A stretch of DNA of 64,000 nucleotides, from the NCBI GenBank assembly GCA_016176335.1, contig JACOXI010000003.1:113104-177103 (forward strand), written 5' to 3'. The position numbers and the translations under genes are program-made. How positions within the stretch are numbered: position 1 is the first letter of the stretch; each line of letters begins with the position of its first letter. Below, one piece after another: positions 11,421-55,286 of this stretch. The notes under the pieces are model-generated. The model was not told the origin of the DNA, did no database searches, and was given only the letters and a program-made list of their open reading frames with translations. Origin of the DNA: Candidatus Daviesbacteria bacterium. Its GTDB lineage: Bacteria > Patescibacteriota > Microgenomatia > Daviesbacterales > UBA10151.

Positions 11421-14400
11421 TTAAAGAGCCATCTTATCAAATAACCACCCAGCCCAATCTCGACCATCAAACTTTTTGACCCATTTACCATCTTCAGATA
11501 CAAAATAGTAATACGGCTGCCTAAGTAATTTGTAGATTTCTGCCTCACCTTTATATGCCTGCACTCCACCTCCGGGCCCTTTATCCAGCAGCCAGTCTAC
11601 ATAAGCATTCCAAAACATTCTGGCAATATGCCTGGAACTCCCGGTATTCCTCTCCTTTTCTAGGGCTATAGCCGGATTAAACCTGCCATCCGGTAAAAAG
11701 ACATCTGTTTTCCTCAAATCCAATGCTCCGCCGGCATTTCTACTATCCGAGTACATTGTTCTAATAGTTTTTAATGTGTCCCAAACTCTGCCAAAAGAGT
11801 CCAATAGTATATGAAACACTTCTGTTTCTCCTTCAGGCTTCTGCAAAGCATCAGTTAATTTCTGCCTTATCTCTAACACTTTTTCAGCATTATTGGTTGG
11901 TTTCATAAATAACCCTTCATGATGAAGCCCTGTTTTAGGATCAATCCCACCAATCAAAGCAAACCACAAGGAGGTACCGCTATCCATCAGGTTAATAAAT
12001 TTAGTAATAGCAAACTGGCTGGCTATTCTTTGGCCTGTTAGTTCGTGAATTTTATCATCCATCATTGAAACAGCTCCTATTACTCCTTTGCGTCCTAAAT
12101 TACCAGCCATGGTGTCTGCATGTATAGGAGCCGCAGAGAGTGCTGCGGTAAATCTTCTGGCCCATCTTTTAGGCATTTTGGCAACTAAGGCTTCGATTTG
12201 CAAAGCAAACCTGAACTCCCCTCCTTGATCCTCTGTATAGTACCCAGTACCCATATATTCCGCATTACCATCCTTAGGTAAAAATCGTTCCTTGAAAGCA
12301 TCTCTGACATTGACCCAACCCAAAAGTGACTCTTCAACTGCAGCATCAAAAACAATCCCCTCTAAAGTCATCTGTTCTCCGGGAAACGCTTTGACCCTGC
12401 ATAAAGTCGGGTCCAAAGTCAAAAGTAACCCTGCGAGAATATCTGCATCTTCTGGCCGTATTAGTCCATCCCTGATTTGCCTGGCCTGGTCAAACACATA
12501 ATCAGGCAAAAGGGTATGGGTATTGTTGCTTTGATAAGCAAAATAGGTGTGGGCAGTATGTAAGGCTAAATAACTGTCTGCTGCAGTTGGGAAATCCAAA
12601 TCAACTTCTTCAGTAAAAACACCGACAACAACACCTTCCCCGTCATTACGTTCTGTTAACACATATTCACCTTTATAAATTTGGCTGTCCAGATTGACGC
12701 GCTGACGTTCCTTTCCTCCTGGTTTATCATAGACAATAGCTTTACCCAACTCATCAAAATCGCTCTCGCCTAAACCCACAGGTCTGCCATCTTGGCCAAA
12801 AACAATAATAGGTTGACCGTTTCGGGTGTAACCGAAAACATGCGGTCTTTTTAATTTTATTTGGCTAAGAGTAAGCGGTTGAGGTTCAACCTTCTCGGGC
12901 TTTAAATTACCGTCCTTATCGAAATAATCTAAGTAATCAGCTGCATAATCAGCATCAGAAAATTTTGCCGCAAAGCCTTTTTCACTAACCGCATCTAGAG
13001 CCCTTTCAAGCGCCTTCTGCACCATAGCTGACCTATATCTGGCTCTAAAGTTACCGTGCTTACCTTCGTCGTCTTTTTCATCCAGTCTTTTTTTAAAGTC
13101 CGGTTCATCCCAGATAGGCGAGTCGTCTCTGTATTTCATCCTAGTCCAATTCACCACAGCCATAACAGTCTTTTGAGCTAAATGAGCGGGTATTTGATCA
13201 ACAATTCTTTCCCTATCTTCCGGACTTAATCCGTTATATAAAGCTTGTTCCTCTGGGGAGAAAGTATCTCGTCTTTTACCCTTTGATATTCCATCCAAAA
13301 TCCACCCGATATGTTGATCCCTCGTAAATGTTGTTTTTCTTTTTTCAAGCGACCATTCGCTAATATCAGGATCTTCAGCTTTTTGATCCTTATGATTCTT
13401 TTGCCGGAACTTTAGGTACTCCCGGACGTATTTATTTCTCTCAATAAAGTAAACTGCTCCGCCTCTGATAGTTGTTTCATGAGTTACACCTTGCATCTGC
13501 ATAGCAACTTCAAAGCTGGCTTCTGAGATGGCATAAGCTTTCTCATATCGTTTCTTCTCTTTTTTTGTAATTCGTTTTAGACTCACCAATTTATCAATTA
13601 ACGTTTCCTTTCTTCCTAGAATTATTGTCCCTGTTCTAACTTCCTGCCTCAACGTATCCATCAAGACTTGAATCTTCCCTAATTTCACAGAATCCCGTAA
13701 TCTCTTAGGAAGACGGTCCGGATCTATACGTCTTTTACCAACATATTCCTGATAGTTGTTTCTATGAACATCACCGTTATCAAAACCTTCATACAAAGCC
13801 TTAAACGCCTCAGCAGATTGATGAATACCTATCCGCTCCTGATTAGTCCTGGTATGTAATTTTGCTTGCAAATAATATTTCCGATCTTCTTCCGTTAAAC
13901 TTTCCAAGTCATCATCATTTCTTTTAAGATGCTCATCGAGCTGCTCCAGGAATGTTGCTCTGTCTAAGCGTAATTTAGGATCAGAGTCAATCTCTGCATC
14001 ACGCCAGTCATAGTCTTTTAAGACAATACCTATTCCTCTTTCTTTCAATCTTTCATAAGTGATTCTTCTAATATACTCATGTACTTGAGTACTGTCTCCA
14101 AATTGTCCTCTTGAACCTTGGGCATTAAGAGCAAATTCTACCATTGCCAAATTATCCAGATTCCACGTATGAAATCCTACCCCTCCCTCTTCCCCTGAAC
14201 GGAGAGCTCTGGTCCATCTTTCCGGTCCTTCATGCATGGCCATGGCCATCGCACCCTGTTTAGCGCCTTCCTTGTTGTAATGCTCACTGTTATAAAAAGT
14301 GTGCCACAGGAAAGCCCTTCCTTCAAATTCCTGCCTCAACTCTTTCATAAAGCCAGCTGTCATCTTATCCGGCACATCATCCATACCTTCTTGCTCTAAT

Positions 14401-15671
14401 ACCAACTCATTTCCTCTTGCGCTCAACACTTTCTTGAAATTCAGCAAATTTTGCATTAACTCATTAGGATCATATCCCAGGGCACGATTTTTAAGCATTT
14501 GCAGAAAAGTTTCTTTTGCGATACGGAATTGGGCAGGAGTTTTAGCACTGATCGTGTAATAATCCGGATAACCGCCGTATGGTTCCCAATAAGTTTCTGT
14601 TCTCTCACCTTCCTCTTCTTCGCCCGGGATACGCCATTCGCCTTCCTTGTAAGGACCAGGGTTTTCACCATTAATTATTTTCCTAAGTTTTCCGCGCGTC
14701 CATACAATATATGCAGTTTCAATATCCAATAACCTGGGGTTAACCTGAGGATCTTTTGCTTTACCGAGCAGAGCATCCTCAAGGGCCTGTCGGGCTTCCG
14801 GCTCCCTTTGTGCCAATAAAGCCAAGGCCTGTTTTTTTGAATAGGTTTTATTCTTAAAACCCAAAAATATAGCGTTATAAACTTCATCAACTTCCTTGAA
14901 TAATCCTTTTCTATGAGCTTCCTTAAAATATATAAGTAAATCTTTTTCTACTTGTTCTCTTTCGGTAATTGGAAGACGCAGATTCAGATATTTGGCGGTT
15001 AAGGTTTCTAAATTCTCACCTCTTGTTTCAATCTCGGTGAAATCTTCAGGCCCGGGCCCGTCTGTCTTTTTTGCCAGTTCAACACCTCTAGCAATTCTCT
15101 CTGCATATGCCTCTTTTATTGCCTCAATGAGCGGCTTGTCAGGCTGCTTTGTGACTTGGTGCTCTTTCTCAAGATTTAAAGGATCTTGCAGGTATCTGTC
15201 TTTTTGCTCTCTCTCTACAAAAGCTTTTAACCCTCTAGACAATTCGTACAGCCTTGGACCATTTTCGGCATTCCATCTAACCTCATAAGACAGCTCCGTC
15301 TCCATATAGGTAATCTCCTCCACCAGCCATCTCCCTCTTTCCGGACTGACTTTCCATTCCGGTCCACTGGTTGGCTCTGGTAATACTGCAGTTTCAGCTC
15401 CTGCTATTTGTCTTATCCTGGCAACTTCTTTGCCTGTTGTTGGATCGGTAAAGACAGTAAAGCCGTCTCTTTCGCTCTTTAGATATTCTCCTGCTCTTTT
15501 AGGATCATAGTCCCTTGAAATATGCCAAGGTTTTTGAGGATTTTGCTCGCCGGAAGGTTGAACCGGAGGCTGGCTTTCAACGATTGCAAAACCTGTTTGA
15601 CCCTCGCCCCCCGGGGTTGCGCCTTCTGGTCCTAGTGTTCCTTCTGCCATATTTCTTTCTGGTTGTGCCAT
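11421..15671 (-). CDS. Very large (1416 aa) soluble protein of unknown function with acidic Pro/Glu-rich N-terminus; no recognisable catalytic motif
   Basis: Uninterrupted 4.25 kb ORF on the opposite strand to the flanking T4SS-like genes. No TM helices, P-loop, HExxH or methyltransferase motifs found by eye. Confidence 0.85.
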   Translation of the reverse strand: MAQPERNMAEGTLGPEGATPGGEGQTGFAIVESQPPVQPSGEQNPQKPWHISRDYDPKRAGEYLKSERDGFTVFTDPTTGKEVARIRQIAGAETAVLPEPTSGPEWKVSPERGRWLVEEITYMETELSYEVRWNAENGPRLYELSRGLKAFVEREQKDRYLQDPLNLEKEHQVTKQPDKPLIEAIKEAYAERIARGVELAKKTDGPGPEDFTEIETRGENLETLTAKYLNLRLPITEREQVEKDLLIYFKEAHRKGLFKEVDEVYNAIFLGFKNKTYSKKQALALLAQREPEARQALEDALLGKAKDPQVNPRLLDIETAYIVWTRGKLRKIINGENPGPYKEGEWRIPGEEEEGERTETYWEPYGGYPDYYTISAKTPAQFRIAKETFLQMLKNRALGYDPNELMQNLLNFKKVLSARGNELVLEQEGMDDVPDKMTAGFMKELRQEFEGRAFLWHTFYNSEHYNKEGAKQGAMAMAMHEGPERWTRALRSGEEGGVGFHTWNLDNLAMVEFALNAQGSRGQFGDSTQVHEYIRRITYERLKERGIGIVLKDYDWRDAEIDSDPKLRLDRATFLEQLDEHLKRNDDDLESLTEEDRKYYLQAKLHTRTNQERIGIHQSAEAFKALYEGFDNGDVHRNNYQEYVGKRRIDPDRLPKRLRDSVKLGKIQVLMDTLRQEVRTGTIILGRKETLIDKLVSLKRITKKEKKRYEKAYAISEASFEVAMQMQGVTHETTIRGGAVYFIERNKYVREYLKFRQKNHKDQKAEDPDISEWSLEKRKTTFTRDQHIGWILDGISKGKRRDTFSPEEQALYNGLSPEDRERIVDQIPAHLAQKTVMAVVNWTRMKYRDDSPIWDEPDFKKRLDEKDDEGKHGNFRARYRSAMVQKALERALDAVSEKGFAAKFSDADYAADYLDYFDKDGNLKPEKVEPQPLTLSQIKLKRPHVFGYTRNGQPIIVFGQDGRPVGLGESDFDELGKAIVYDKPGGKERQRVNLDSQIYKGEYVLTERNDGEGVVVGVFTEEVDLDFPTAADSYLALHTAHTYFAYQSNNTHTLLPDYVFDQARQIRDGLIRPEDADILAGLLLTLDPTLCRVKAFPGEQMTLEGIVFDAAVEESLLGWVNVRDAFKERFLPKDGNAEYMGTGYYTEDQGGEFRFALQIEALVAKMPKRWARRFTAALSAAPIHADTMAGNLGRKGVIGAVSMMDDKIHELTGQRIASQFAITKFINLMDSGTSLWFALIGGIDPKTGLHHEGLFMKPTNNAEKVLEIRQKLTDALQKPEGETEVFHILLDSFGRVWDTLKTIRTMYSDSRNAGGALDLRKTDVFLPDGRFNPAIALEKERNTGSSRHIARMFWNAYVDWLLDKGPGGGVQAYKGEAEIYKLLRQPYYYFVSEDGKWVKKFDGRDWAGWLFDKMAL

Positions 15672-16004: not shown

Positions 16005-16283
16005 CTACTTTTCTTCTTGGTATAACTGGTCGTGAGTTCCCAATAAGACAAAGTAAACAACAACAACTTCTCCTTCACTCTTCTCTGCATAAATTGCCCG
16101 CCAATTTGCAGTTATATCAATGCTTCGCAGTCCTTGGTATGGTTCTTTTAACAGGTGGTTATCTAATTCAAAGTCATTAGGGTTTCTGGAGAAAATCAAA
16201 ACTTTTTCCTTGAAGCTCTTGCGAACTCTCACATCTGCTTTTTTCAGAGTGCGTAAAAAGATAGGGGAATATCTGATGATCAT
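16005..16283 (-). CDS. yafQ: YafQ/RelE-family type II toxin (ribosome-dependent mRNA interferase)
   Basis: 92 aa. HLLKEPYQGLRSIDITANWRAIY...LLGTHDQLY parallels E. coli YafQ (HPLQGSWKGYRDAHVEPDWILIY...RTGTHAALF). Overlaps the upstream dinJ by 4 nt. Confidence 0.75.
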   Translation of the reverse strand: MIIRYSPIFLRTLKKADVRVRKSFKEKVLIFSRNPNDFELDNHLLKEPYQGLRSIDITANWRAIYAEKSEGEVVVVYFVLLGTHDQLYQEEK

Positions 16284-16564
16284 ATTCCCTGTTTTTCAAG
16301 CCAAGCAACCGCTTCCTCTCCGGTTTTAAATGCCGGGGATGTTCTGCCTGCCTTCCAATCTTTCTCTGCTTGGCGGATAGCGTTTTTTAAGTACTCGCTC
16401 GGTTCTTCATCTCTGGCGCTAAACTCCACAGACTTTGTCCTAATAAACTGTTTTAAGAATGCCTTAATGACAACAGATAAAGGCATGCCAAGCGCTTCAG
16501 CTGTGGCTTGGGCTTCTTTTTTAGTTTTGGGGTCAACTTTGGCAACAACTACTGCATAACTCAT
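16280..16564 (-). CDS. dinJ: DinJ/RelB-family antitoxin
   Basis: 94 aa. N-terminal ribbon-helix-helix region (MSYAVVVAKVDPKTKKEAQATAEALGMPLSVVIKAFLKQF) typical of DinJ. Forms an operon with the toxin. Confidence 0.75.
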   Translation of the reverse strand: MSYAVVVAKVDPKTKKEAQATAEALGMPLSVVIKAFLKQFIRTKSVEFSARDEEPSEYLKNAIRQAEKDWKAGRTSPAFKTGEEAVAWLEKQGI

Positions 16565-51742: not shown

Positions 51743-51767
51743 TTGTGGTGAGCGAAGTCGAACCATG
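51743..51767. repeat. tRNA 3'-end-like 23-mer direct-repeat copy 2 (GTGGTGAGCGAAGTCGAACCATG) abutting start codon of next gene
   Basis: See copy 1 at 49037-49060. Confidence 0.5.
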
Positions 51768-52652
51768 GAAAAAGCTATTTTAAAAACTTTAATTTATGCT
51801 GATATTTTTGATTATCCGCTAAATACTTACGAAATTCATAAATGGTTGATTGGTAAAAAGGCTCGACTTCGGCAGGTAGAATCCGCCTTAGGCGGATTAG
51901 TGCAAAGTGCAAAGCTCAAAGTACAAAGTGGATATTATTTTCTTCCCAGAAGAGATGGGTTGGTAGTAAAAAGGAAGCGTAGAGAAGAACAGTCAGAAAA
52001 GTATTTGCGAAAAGCACAGGTTTTAGCCTCACTTTTAAAGATCGTGCCCTGGATTAAACTGATAGGTGTTTCTGGTGGATTGGCGATGGGGAATGCCAGT
52101 AAGAGTGATGATATTGACCTTTTTATTATTACCAGTAAAAATCGCCTGTGGATTTCAAGGCTTTTGGCATTAGGATTGCTATCTTTAACAGGACAAAGGA
52201 GAAAAGTTGGGGATTTTGGCAGAAAAATTGCCGGAAAATTATGTTTAAATATCTTACTCGAAGAGGATAGATTAGAGCAAAACAATAAAGATATCTATCT
52301 TGCACATGAGGTTTTACAAATGAGGGTTTTATGGCAAAGGGATGGGATTTATTCAAAATATCTTTCCGATAATGAATGGGCTTTCAAGTTTTTACCGAAT
52401 TGGGTGGGAGAAAGAATCAAGAATAATGAATTAAGAATTAAGCATAAAAAGCATAATTCTTTATTCTTACCGCTTAATTCTACTTTGAACATTTTCGAGA
52501 GAATGGCACAAAAATTCCAACTTTGGTATATGCAAACTCCGCAAGGCATGGAGAGGATAGAAGATGGGGCGCTATATTTCCATCCGTTGGATTATAGGAG
52601 CAGAATACTTGATGCATACCAAAAGAAAGTAGTAAAACTTATCAGTCCTTGA
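51765..52652 (+). CDS. Nucleotidyltransferase-fold (Pol-beta superfamily) protein
   Basis: GVSGGLAMGNASKSDDIDLFIIT fits the GS...D.D nucleotidyltransferase motif. 295 aa. Confidence 0.5.
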   Translation: MEKAILKTLIYADIFDYPLNTYEIHKWLIGKKARLRQVESALGGLVQSAKLKVQSGYYFLPRRDGLVVKRKRREEQSEKYLRKAQVLASLLKIVPWIKLIGVSGGLAMGNASKSDDIDLFIITSKNRLWISRLLALGLLSLTGQRRKVGDFGRKIAGKLCLNILLEEDRLEQNNKDIYLAHEVLQMRVLWQRDGIYSKYLSDNEWAFKFLPNWVGERIKNNELRIKHKKHNSLFLPLNSTLNIFERMAQKFQLWYMQTPQGMERIEDGALYFHPLDYRSRILDAYQKKVVKLISP

Positions 52653-52712
52653 CAAGTAGTGCTAAGTTCTGGTATAAATCATACTCGATCCTGCTCCACT
52701 GTCGTCATTCAT

Positions 52713-53033
52713 ATGCCAAAAGTAAATAAAGGAAACAGTTCTAAAGTTTCGATCAAGCCCTTAATGGGTTATGTGTTAGTGCAACCTAGTGAGGCAGATA
52801 CCAAAACTGCATCAGGAATTATTTTGCCGGAATCTGCTCAAGAAAAACCAGCCCAAGGGAAAGTGTTGGCTTGTGGAGATGAGATGGTGATGGAAAATGG
52901 CAAAACAGTCAAATGCCCGGTTAAAGTTGGAGATAAAGTAGTTTATAAAAAATGGGGTGGAGATGAGATAAAAGTGGAAGGAAAAGAATTAAAGCTAGTT
53001 AAGTTTGATGACTTAATGGCAATTTTGGAGTAA
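52713..53033 (+). CDS. groS: Co-chaperonin GroES
   Basis: IKPLMGYVLVQPSEADTKTASGIILPESAQEKPAQGKVLACG is the canonical GroES mobile-loop region. ATG at 52713. Confidence 0.9.
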   Translation: MPKVNKGNSSKVSIKPLMGYVLVQPSEADTKTASGIILPESAQEKPAQGKVLACGDEMVMENGKTVKCPVKVGDKVVYKKWGGDEIKVEGKELKLVKFDDLMAILE

Positions 53034-53038
53034 AAAAT

Positions 53039-53326
53039 ATGGGAGAAAGTATTAACAGACAACTTATAACACGAGAACAACAGGAGCAAGTATTTAAGAG
53101 GGCGGATGAGTTAATTGAAGGTGTTAACCATCGGCAGAGACTTCTGGGGCCAGATGATCCAGCGGGGCATGCTTACCGTTCTATAGTAGCTACACTGGCT
53201 GGTTTCAAATTAGGAATATTGGCAGCTTCCGGAGCACTAGATCCTGAGGCTTTTCTTGGAATGAAAGCAAATGATGTAGAGATAGTCAGTTTAGTAGCTA
53301 AATATCCAGAGGTATTAAAAAGGTAA
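53039..53326 (+). CDS. Hypothetical 95-aa protein inserted between groES and groEL
   Basis: Clean ORF that fills the intergenic space exactly. GC-richer than the flanks. No homology cue. Confidence 0.45.
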   Translation: MGESINRQLITREQQEQVFKRADELIEGVNHRQRLLGPDDPAGHAYRSIVATLAGFKLGILAASGALDPEAFLGMKANDVEIVSLVAKYPEVLKR

Positions 53327-53330
53327 AAAT

Positions 53331-53660
53331 ATGGCAGAAAGAAGAGGAGCACAAATGAGATCAGGAGCAGAAATTGAAGAAGCATTGAAGGCCTTAAAAA
53401 TGGATTTGGGTCCTTTGGATCGCTTAGGTGATGTTGTATTGGGGGTTGTTCCAGGGATAGGTGACCCTGGTAGACAAAGAAGATTGGGGCGAATAGAAGC
53501 TTTAGAATGGGTTATGAAACAAAGAGGAAGCGGACCAACAGCTATAAATGATGTTATAAAGGGAGCAGGAAGAAGCGCTCTTTTAACAGGAAGTTTACCA
53601 AAGATAGCAGTTCTGGGTTCAGAAGCCCAACTTGAGATTATGGGAGGAGGCCACGCATAG
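53331..53660 (+). CDS. Hypothetical 109-aa Gly/Arg-rich protein inserted between groES and groEL
   Basis: Clean ORF ending 3 nt before the groEL start. No homology cue. Confidence 0.45.
   Translation: MAERRGAQMRSGAEIEEALKALKMDLGPLDRLGDVVLGVVPGIGDPGRQRRLGRIEALEWVMKQRGSGPTAINDVIKGAGRSALLTGSLPKIAVLGSEAQLEIMGGGHA

Positions 53661-55286
<1,626 letters not shown>

Follow-up and report, generated by a model that had tools for sequence, protein, structure and literature searches.

Chromosomal hotspots, or flexible islets, are places where genes turn over between conserved core genes, and phage morons are extra genes that lie between the conserved genes of late operons, usually with a promoter and a terminator of their own and with a differing composition. 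Few bacterial operons are as conserved or as tightly organised as groESL. Here, we describe a stretch of 64,000 nucleotides (nt) of DNA from Candidatus Daviesbacteria bacterium (hereafter the window; assembly GCA_016176335.1, contig JACOXI010000003.1, positions 113,104 to 177,103 of the forward strand) in which two small open reading frames (ORFs), ORF1 and ORF2, lie between groES and groEL. Their presence belongs to a wider and unexpected pattern: a clade of ultra-small bacteria of the Candidate Phyla Radiation (CPR; Microgenomates), which is under strong genome reduction, keeps placing unrelated orphan genes in groESL. The account towards which we lean, without great assurance, is that ORF1 and ORF2 are real, co-transcribed and dispensable orphan genes in a modular, hypervariable groESL slot that is peculiar to the clade, and that selection in this slot acts on the reading frame and its initiation and not on the peptide. 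What is new is this clade-wide context within groESL, in which orphan ORFs are gained, lost and changed beyond recognition.

The slot is best filed as a gene-turnover hotspot that is filled with orphan genes and is unusual for lying inside groESL. It resembles the flexible islets in its conserved flanks and synteny, in a content that differs in nearly every lineage and in the signs of recombination at its flanks. It differs from them in being situated inside an operon, where the two genes on either side of it function together as a single machine, and in holding nothing except one or two orphan ORFs of 62-146 amino acids (aa), with no integrases, tRNAs or mobile-element genes. The comparison with the morons is equally mixed. 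In both cases small, unrelated extra genes are inserted where two genes of a conserved operon meet, and close relatives carry different ones; unlike the morons, the ORFs of the groES-groEL gap lack promoter or terminator signals of their own, have a host-like composition and reside in a bacterial chromosome. No viral relatives were found for them either, and a phage origin of ORF1 and ORF2 was rejected for lack of any match in the phage and viral collections searched (INPHARED by tblastn; IMG/VR scans).

All four genes of the locus are on the + strand. In order, they are groES (52713-53033; 106 aa; Pfam Cpn10, E=5.9e-30; NCBI MBI2018267.1), ORF1 (53039-53326; 95 aa; HYS96_01040 = MBI2018268.1), ORF2 (53331-53660; 109 aa; HYS96_01045 = MBI2018269.1) and groEL (53664-55286; 540 aa; Pfam Cpn60_TCP1, E=1.1e-73). 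The gap between groES and groEL measures 630 nt and the successive spacers are 5, 4 and 3 nt long. ORF2 has an alternative start at 53355, with the sequence GAGGAG (53344-53349) 5 nt before it, and one gene caller chose this start (101 aa). In the NCBI annotation, ORF1 and ORF2 are hypothetical proteins on a 456,706-nt contig. The Logan assembly of SRR4343435 is 100% identical to window positions 52526-54246, that is, across 1721 nt; since an independent assembly is identical across the region, the insert is not a chimera or an assembly artefact. This agrees with a first-pass annotation of the window, which had described the two small ORFs, their coordinates and strand and the short spacers. 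It had also called the ORFs GC-richer than the chaperonin genes, which is true with respect to groES (GC content 0.380, compared with 0.420 for ORF1 and 0.442 for ORF2) and untrue with respect to groEL (0.444). With a GC content equal to that of groEL and a host-like codon usage, base composition gives no sign of a foreign origin. The description of ORF2 as Gly/Arg-rich was roughly right (17% Gly; 10 Arg among 109 residues).

To place this arrangement in context, groESL loci were gathered from genome and metagenome collections through their GroEL, further loci were added through close GroES proteins, and the Daviesbacteria clade was delimited on a GroEL tree. The usual adjacency of groES and groEL, on which the first-pass annotation had relied, is borne out by the 139 loci outside the clade: their gap is 41 nt long at the median and 260 nt at most, and in none of them does it hold a + strand ORF of at least 40 aa. 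Within the clade, gap ORFs are present in 14 of the 22 distinct loci (against 0 of 139 elsewhere, p=6e-15), one or two per locus, and they take up the whole interval between the stop of groES and the start of groEL; the other eight members have no such ORF. The surroundings of the slot are stable. Synteny is kept in the order murB, a 295-aa gene, groES, the gap, groEL, a bPH-domain gene and an M23-like gene, and in L001-L005 the neighbouring proteins around the slot are 52-75% identical. The gap ORFs themselves are stable inside a species: the 82-aa ORF of L007 was recovered on 26 contigs from several samples, and its 90%-identity cluster contains a single other variant, with one amino-acid change. 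Nowhere among the related loci is a spacer of this kind retained with broken ORFs; the spacer is either absent or taken up by other, intact ORFs.

The coding capacity of the insert was evaluated with a codon log-likelihood table trained on 34 long ORFs of the window, the scores being expressed per codon. Read in frame, ORF1 scores 0.274 and ORF2 0.384, compared with a gene mean of 0.236 and with 0.362 for groES and 0.452 for groEL; the other five frames of both ORFs score zero or below. Spurious ORFs nested in real genes have a mean score of -0.035 and a maximum of 0.224. Random stop-free sequence of equal composition has its 99th percentile at 0.24, a value that ORF1 surpasses, and the score of ORF2 exceeds those of all 2000 such controls. 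At the base composition of the insert, the probability that 204 codons would be open by chance is 2e-7, and not one of 20,000 shuffles yielded two ORFs that covered as much of the gap. Frame-specific scores, in the range 0.17-0.44, are also a property of the 15 gap ORFs from other loci. We conclude that ORF1 and ORF2 appear to be coding, host-adapted frames that did not arrive recently from a donor of different composition. A 172-aa antisense ORF (53315-53833, - strand) spans the whole of ORF2 and the start of groEL; no frame of its strand scores better than about zero, and we interpret it as a shadow frame cast by the genes of the + strand.

The products of these frames are orphans, as the first-pass annotation had suspected when it found no recognisable motif in them and proposed that they might be lineage-specific. 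In a word-seeded search of 5.8 billion clustered proteins, ORF1 and ORF2 each match only themselves, and ORF2 found nothing besides itself when 1.84 billion representatives were scanned in full with HMMER. Neither ORF belongs to a family in Pfam, NCBIfam or PHROGs (E up to 1-10) or in PADLOC, while groES and groEL match strongly alongside, and the 15 gap ORFs of the other loci have no Pfam family. Nor are the gap ORFs related to one another. Among the 136 pairs that can be formed from 17 of them the mean z is 0.15, and the single significant pair, ORF2 and the ORF of locus L165, owes its score to a shared C-terminus of 16 residues. We had perceived by eye a helix-Gly-helix motif that might have united them as one diverged family; this was rejected, as Smith-Waterman scores against shuffles have a mean z of 0.0-0.15 and, the ORF2/L165 tail excepted, none above 3. 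A derivation of the ORFs from groEL, groES or any other window sequence, in any frame, was likewise discarded after blastn and tblastx found nothing. The same fate befell the notion that ORF1 and ORF2 are tandem paralogues: the short collinear repeats in their DNA fall in different reading frames and, the junction apart, their DNA alignment is no better than that of codon shuffles (p=0.38). Full-text searches of the literature retrieved nothing on genes between groES and groEL, nor on Daviesbacteria chaperonins.

Structure prediction adds a little to this picture. A single-sequence AlphaFold (AF2) model of ORF1 (pLDDT 70.7) depicts a putative helical hairpin followed by two short C-terminal helices; compared with the PDB, it gives generic matches, none of them with E below 2. 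The corresponding model of ORF2 (pLDDT 42.8) is too poor for fold recognition. The remote-homology and structural comparisons that the first-pass annotation had recommended have thus provided a hairpin of moderate confidence for ORF1, no homologue and no fold match. In their lack of homologues outside one lineage, their short products with helix-rich predictions, their coding signature without sequence conservation and their dispensability on evolutionary time scales, the gap ORFs are like the orphan genes or proto-genes of other bacteria. They differ from these in being confined to one fixed slot of a chaperone operon and not scattered in islands or intergenic regions, and in being translation-ready, recurrent across the clade and provided with a common start junction.

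As two small, adjacent and co-oriented genes of 95 and 109 aa with a 4-nt spacer, ORF1 and ORF2 also have the appearance of a type II toxin-antitoxin pair. However, neither is like any toxin or antitoxin family, the pair occurs in no other genome, and other loci hold single ORFs or other pairs; membership of a defence or toxin-antitoxin family was dismissed after the searches of Pfam, NCBIfam and PADLOC. Elsewhere in the window, an overlapping pair of small genes (16005-16564, - strand; 94 and 92 aa) matches the RelB antitoxin, with matches to the YafQ and ParE toxins below the Pfam cut-offs, and is probably a type II toxin-antitoxin module. The recognition of this pair by the Pfam library provides a positive control for such searches.

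The feature that the gap ORFs do have in common is the way in which they begin. In the window, the junction of groES and ORF1 (copy 1, AAAAATATGGGAGAAAG, 53033-53049, + strand) combines the groES stop context with the ORF1 start, and the junction of ORF1 and ORF2 (copy 2, AAAAATATGGCAGAAAG, 53325-53341, + strand) combines the ORF1 stop context with the ORF2 start; the two form a 17-nt direct repeat with 16 identical positions. The sequence AAAAATATGG[G/C]AGAAAG at the two ORF starts has no other exact copy in the 64 kb. In 193 kb, both strands included, its core, A[AT]ATG[GA][CG]AGAA, was found nine times at the starts of gap ORFs and at a single other place. Throughout the clade, the groES stop codon TAA, an A-rich run and then ATG lead into the first gap ORF, and the same succession precedes groEL in loci without an insert (for example L002, ...TTGGAGTAAAATATGGCAAAA). 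The motif shared by the module starts is close to the start context of groEL itself. The window's only other near-copy of the motif, AGAAATATGGCAGAAGG (15640-15656), is at the eighth codon of a 1416-aa ORF (11421-15671, - strand) that Pfam leaves unmatched at E up to 0.01; it may be the true start of that ORF.

A comparison of two close strains catches the slot in the act of changing. L171 matches L006 with 98.7% identity in groES and the first ORF, and is without the second (ORFb). The 345-nt indel that distinguishes them is flanked on both sides by ATATGGC; entire modules thus come or go at the junction repeat even among near-identical strains. This is in keeping with the inserted mini-cassette that the first-pass annotation had offered as one possibility. 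The same two loci are mosaic: the bodies of the first ORF (ORFa) are identical at 303 of 303 nt, codons 3-14 contain six substitutions, and groEL has eight synonymous differences in 78 codons. A different sort of scar is present in L005, where a relic of a groES 3' end (...MGVLE, of the L133 type) is found downstream of the locus's own groES (...MAILE). Between the intact gene and the relic is a short repeat element, GTCATCCTGAG...GAAGGATC, which occurs in the gaps of L005 (3473-3568) and L001 (3878-4000); the L001 gap holds two inverted copies of it and no ORF.

Such behaviour has a parallel in integron arrays, where promoterless single-ORF modules also stand in series, rely on a promoter upstream for their expression and are acquired or shed one at a time at a junction that is repeated. 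The repeat of the groESL slot is of another nature: it is a start-codon context of 7-17 nt that resembles the groEL initiation region. Neither within the insert nor at its ends are there attC-type or terminal inverted repeats (weak long-range pairs apart), and no integrase was seen in the flanks examined, a systematic search for one not having been made. Insertion sequences and miniature inverted-repeat transposable elements are a still poorer match, given the same lack of terminal inverted repeats and of any transposase-like product among the Pfam results; the direct repeat of the insert is the start-codon junction itself.

The nearest relative of the window, L165/L172, has a single gap ORF of 125 aa and a DNA identity to the window of 91% in groES and 86% in groEL. 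Homology between the window and L165 runs through groES to the 17th nucleotide of ORF1 (53055) and resumes at 53608, 56 nt before groEL. The 552 nt thus bounded by blastn and tblastx breakpoints (53056-53607, + strand), which we call the variable body, have no alignment in any frame with the 309 nt at the equivalent position in L165, the alignment scores being no better than those of shuffles. The conserved tail that follows (53608-53663, + strand) comprises the final 17 codons of ORF2 (VLGSEAQLEIMGGGHA plus the one in front of it) together with GGAGGAGG; it encodes VLGSE[A/V]QLEIMGGG[H/N]A in the two loci and is 93% identical between them, with a proportion of synonymous differences (pS) of 0.07. 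For comparison, the synonymous divergence (dS) between the window and L165 is 0.51 in groES and 1.04 in groEL, and dS among all sampled lineages is about 1 or more, that is, at saturation. The ends of the insert are thus held at the nucleotide level, the tail by its low pS and the start motif by its conservation across saturated lineages. The bodies either change at or near the neutral rate or are replaced. The frames remain open in spite of this.

The breakpoints had initially led us to a firm claim that the body had been replaced. We have withdrawn it in view of the dS of 0.5-1.0 from the nearest relative and of a simulation in which neutral divergence at K=1 was recognised in only 46% of cases, even without indels. 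At the shorter time scale of two close strain pairs, the gap ORFs have accumulated six nonsynonymous substitutions and one synonymous, compared with two and nine in groES and groEL together (p=0.013); the counts are small, but they speak for a weak constraint on the peptide.

How would such modules be expressed? Upstream of groES, a promoter-like block (TTGACA, 18 nt, TGgTATAAA) is nearly invariant in 11 Daviesbacteria loci. In the window the block (52640-52680) reads CAGTCCTTGACAAGTAGTGCTAA...TGGTATAAA, and the site proper (52649-52679, + strand) has TTGACA at 52649-52654, the 18-nt spacer and TGgTATAAA(T) at 52670-52679; a consensus promoter scan missed it because its second hexamer ends in A. 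The spacer holds AGTAGTGCTAA, which, like the part TAGTGCTAA of the block, resembles a half-site of the CIRCE heat-shock operator, with no full inverted repeat evident. Inside the gap, the consensus scan placed no promoter-like site on the + strand, and from groES to the end of groEL it gave nothing that resembles a terminator. Motifs that could recruit ribosomes are placed inside the preceding genes. The last codons of groES, TTG GAG TAA, supply a GGAG (53027-53030) 8 nt upstream of the ORF1 start; the first ORF2 start is preceded by AAGG alone, its alternative having the GAGGAG mentioned above; and GGAGGAGG (53643-53650), within the conserved tail, is 13 nt upstream of the groEL start. With stop-start distances of 3-5 nt and ribosome-binding motifs inside the upstream ORF, the locus has the hallmarks of translational coupling. 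It shares these short distances, the Shine-Dalgarno-like runs in the preceding codons and the unstructured, A-rich starts with coupled operon ORFs and with leader ORFs; it differs from leader-type small ORFs in the much greater length of the gap ORFs and in having no attenuator or terminator structure, the coupling in this case being deduced from sequence. Compared with shuffles, all four junction regions have less stable folds (z +0.6 to +1.8). An RNA thermometer or other structured RNA in the conserved tail is unsupported, since the tail is not more structured than shuffles and Rfam gives no match over 52300-54000 at E up to 1.

In the mechanism that we propose, groES, ORF1, ORF2 and groEL would be carried by one transcript and translated in series, probably with coupling, so that the ORF products would be made in large amounts under the control of the operon. 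The first module would have borrowed its initiation region from that of groEL, and further modules would be stacked or deleted by recombination between the reiterated junction copies. The region before groEL would have to stay intact, and the frame would be kept open so that ribosomes reach groEL; the peptides would be free to change or to be swapped, no particular sequence being preserved. The products would presumably be abundant, stress-linked small proteins, dispensable accessories carried along by the operon and no conserved element of the chaperonin machine. They would be either young or fast-evolving, since selection would preserve the open frame and the initiation regions and not the peptide sequence.

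Several observations weigh against this account of real, dispensable orphan genes. Module gain or loss is observed in a sister lineage and not for ORF1 or ORF2 themselves. Because all the sampled lineages are synonymously saturated, replacement of the bodies is indistinguishable from their divergence in place. The nonsynonymous excess amounts to seven substitutions, five of them clustered in 12 codons, and is possibly the result of a single conversion event. The spacing of 13 nt between GGAGGAGG and groEL is long for a Shine-Dalgarno site, and the translation and coupling of ORF1 and ORF2 are themselves read from the DNA. Finally, the high codon scores and periodicity are not obviously what a freely drifting peptide would be expected to have; the proteins may instead be functional and fast-changing.

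This last point leads to the best of the alternatives, which is nonetheless unlikely in our estimation: that the gap ORFs encode functional, rapidly evolving accessory proteins of the chaperonin or of the stress response (regulators, client-like adaptors or modulators of the lid), under positive selection and kept in groESL for the sake of co-expression. A position within groESL that is maintained across the whole clade would suit such a role, as would a strong coding signature that resembles that of highly expressed genes and the near constancy of the L007 ORF across its samples. The nonsynonymous excess in the close pairs is compatible with positive selection, and the helical hairpin predicted with moderate confidence for ORF1 also counts in favour of a functional protein. 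What speaks against it is that the peptides of different lineages have no similarity beyond one 16-residue tail, that the ORFs vary in number (0, 1 or 2) and in length (62-146 aa) and are missing altogether from 8 of the 22 clade members, and that one module is present or absent between strains that are 98.7% identical. There is no family or fold match in favour of this alternative and, in particular, no match of ORF1 or ORF2 to Cpn10 (PF00166) or to any chaperone or co-chaperone model. A motif of the type of the GroES mobile loop (Gly, a hydrophobic triplet, Pro/Thr) was also sought in the 17 gap ORFs; its counts are not above those of shuffles, one post hoc variant reaching p=0.009 prior to correction, and mimicry of the mobile loop was rejected for want of enrichment. 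The suggestion in the first-pass annotation that these are co-chaperone-linked proteins has found no support beyond position: nothing else ties the ORF products to GroEL, and even the nearest relative does not share the peptide.

A second alternative, which we consider improbable, would see in the gap ORFs cassettes that are exchanged horizontally and come from a large pool of genes for selfish, addiction, defence or anti-defence functions; these would enter through the groES and groEL flanks or the junction repeat and would exploit the expression of the operon. The relic groES 3' end in L005, which is of another lineage's type, could be a trace of such traffic, and so could the mosaic of L006 and L171, where 0 of 303 nt differ in the ORFa body as against the eight synonymous differences in groEL; whole-module indels and the toxin-antitoxin-like sizes of the window's two genes fit it as well. 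The sharp homology breakpoints with the nearest relative might be added to these, except that with saturated synonymous sites breakpoints need not mean replacement. Against this alternative, no body among the 17 sampled recurs in a second lineage, and those of ORF1 and ORF2 occur in no other genomic context among the 5.8 billion proteins. The phage and viral collections and the defence and toxin-antitoxin models contain nothing like them, even though Pfam does find the RelB/YafQ-like pair; moreover, their codon usage and GC content are those of the host and they have no attC-like or terminal inverted repeats.

A non-coding spacer or regulatory RNA with chance or shadow frames, or an assembly chimera, to which the lack of homologues, the absence of a confident ORF2 fold and the long antisense ORF might point, is effectively excluded by the improbability of so much open frame, by a frame-specific codon signal far above that of spurious ORFs with antisense frames at about zero or below, by junctions that fold less stably than shuffles and have no Rfam match, by intact gap ORFs in 14 independent lineages and by the identical independent assembly.

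If orphan genes of the kind that we favour do fill the slot, it is one spot where newcomers inherit the expression signals of an operon. It would then provide many natural replicates of a new ORF dropped into a defined and highly expressed context, each with a dated flank, and so material for the study of the origin, persistence and loss of orphan genes in bacteria. It would also be a caution to annotators that hypothetical proteins inside the core operons of the CPR can be real and lineage-specific. It is possible, if rather doubtful, that the locus is something more elaborate, a dedicated cassette slot that operates without an integrase: with a start junction derived from groEL, with stacking, deletion and exchange driven by recombination, with expression at the level of the chaperonin and perhaps with co-folding of the products by GroEL, it might act as a nursery of genes or as a locus in an episymbiont arms race.

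Some further variation was noted in and around the operon. In L162 (3040-3228; L163 is the same), the 70-aa gap ORF is followed by a frame that begins with the first seven codons of groEL (MAKILKF) and runs on to the contig end as an unrelated Cys-rich sequence, CRVCNKTF...CSRSCY, for which Pfam gives weak zinc-finger matches only; it may be a rearrangement of, or an insertion in, the 5' end of groEL, or another kind of module. The 295-aa gene just 5' of groES (51765-52652, + strand) has nucleotidyltransferase-domain matches, all of them sub-threshold; it is syntenic in L002-L005 and L084, and L001, L006 and L007 yielded no match to it. L172 has an extra DUF3800 gene (1683-2336) between this gene and groES. 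On the 3' side of groEL, where the window has the bPH-domain gene, L164 (4469-5321) and L168 (4761-5372) have YjbQ, DUF433/DUF5615 and PIN genes. The flanks of the operon, too, therefore differ among close relatives.

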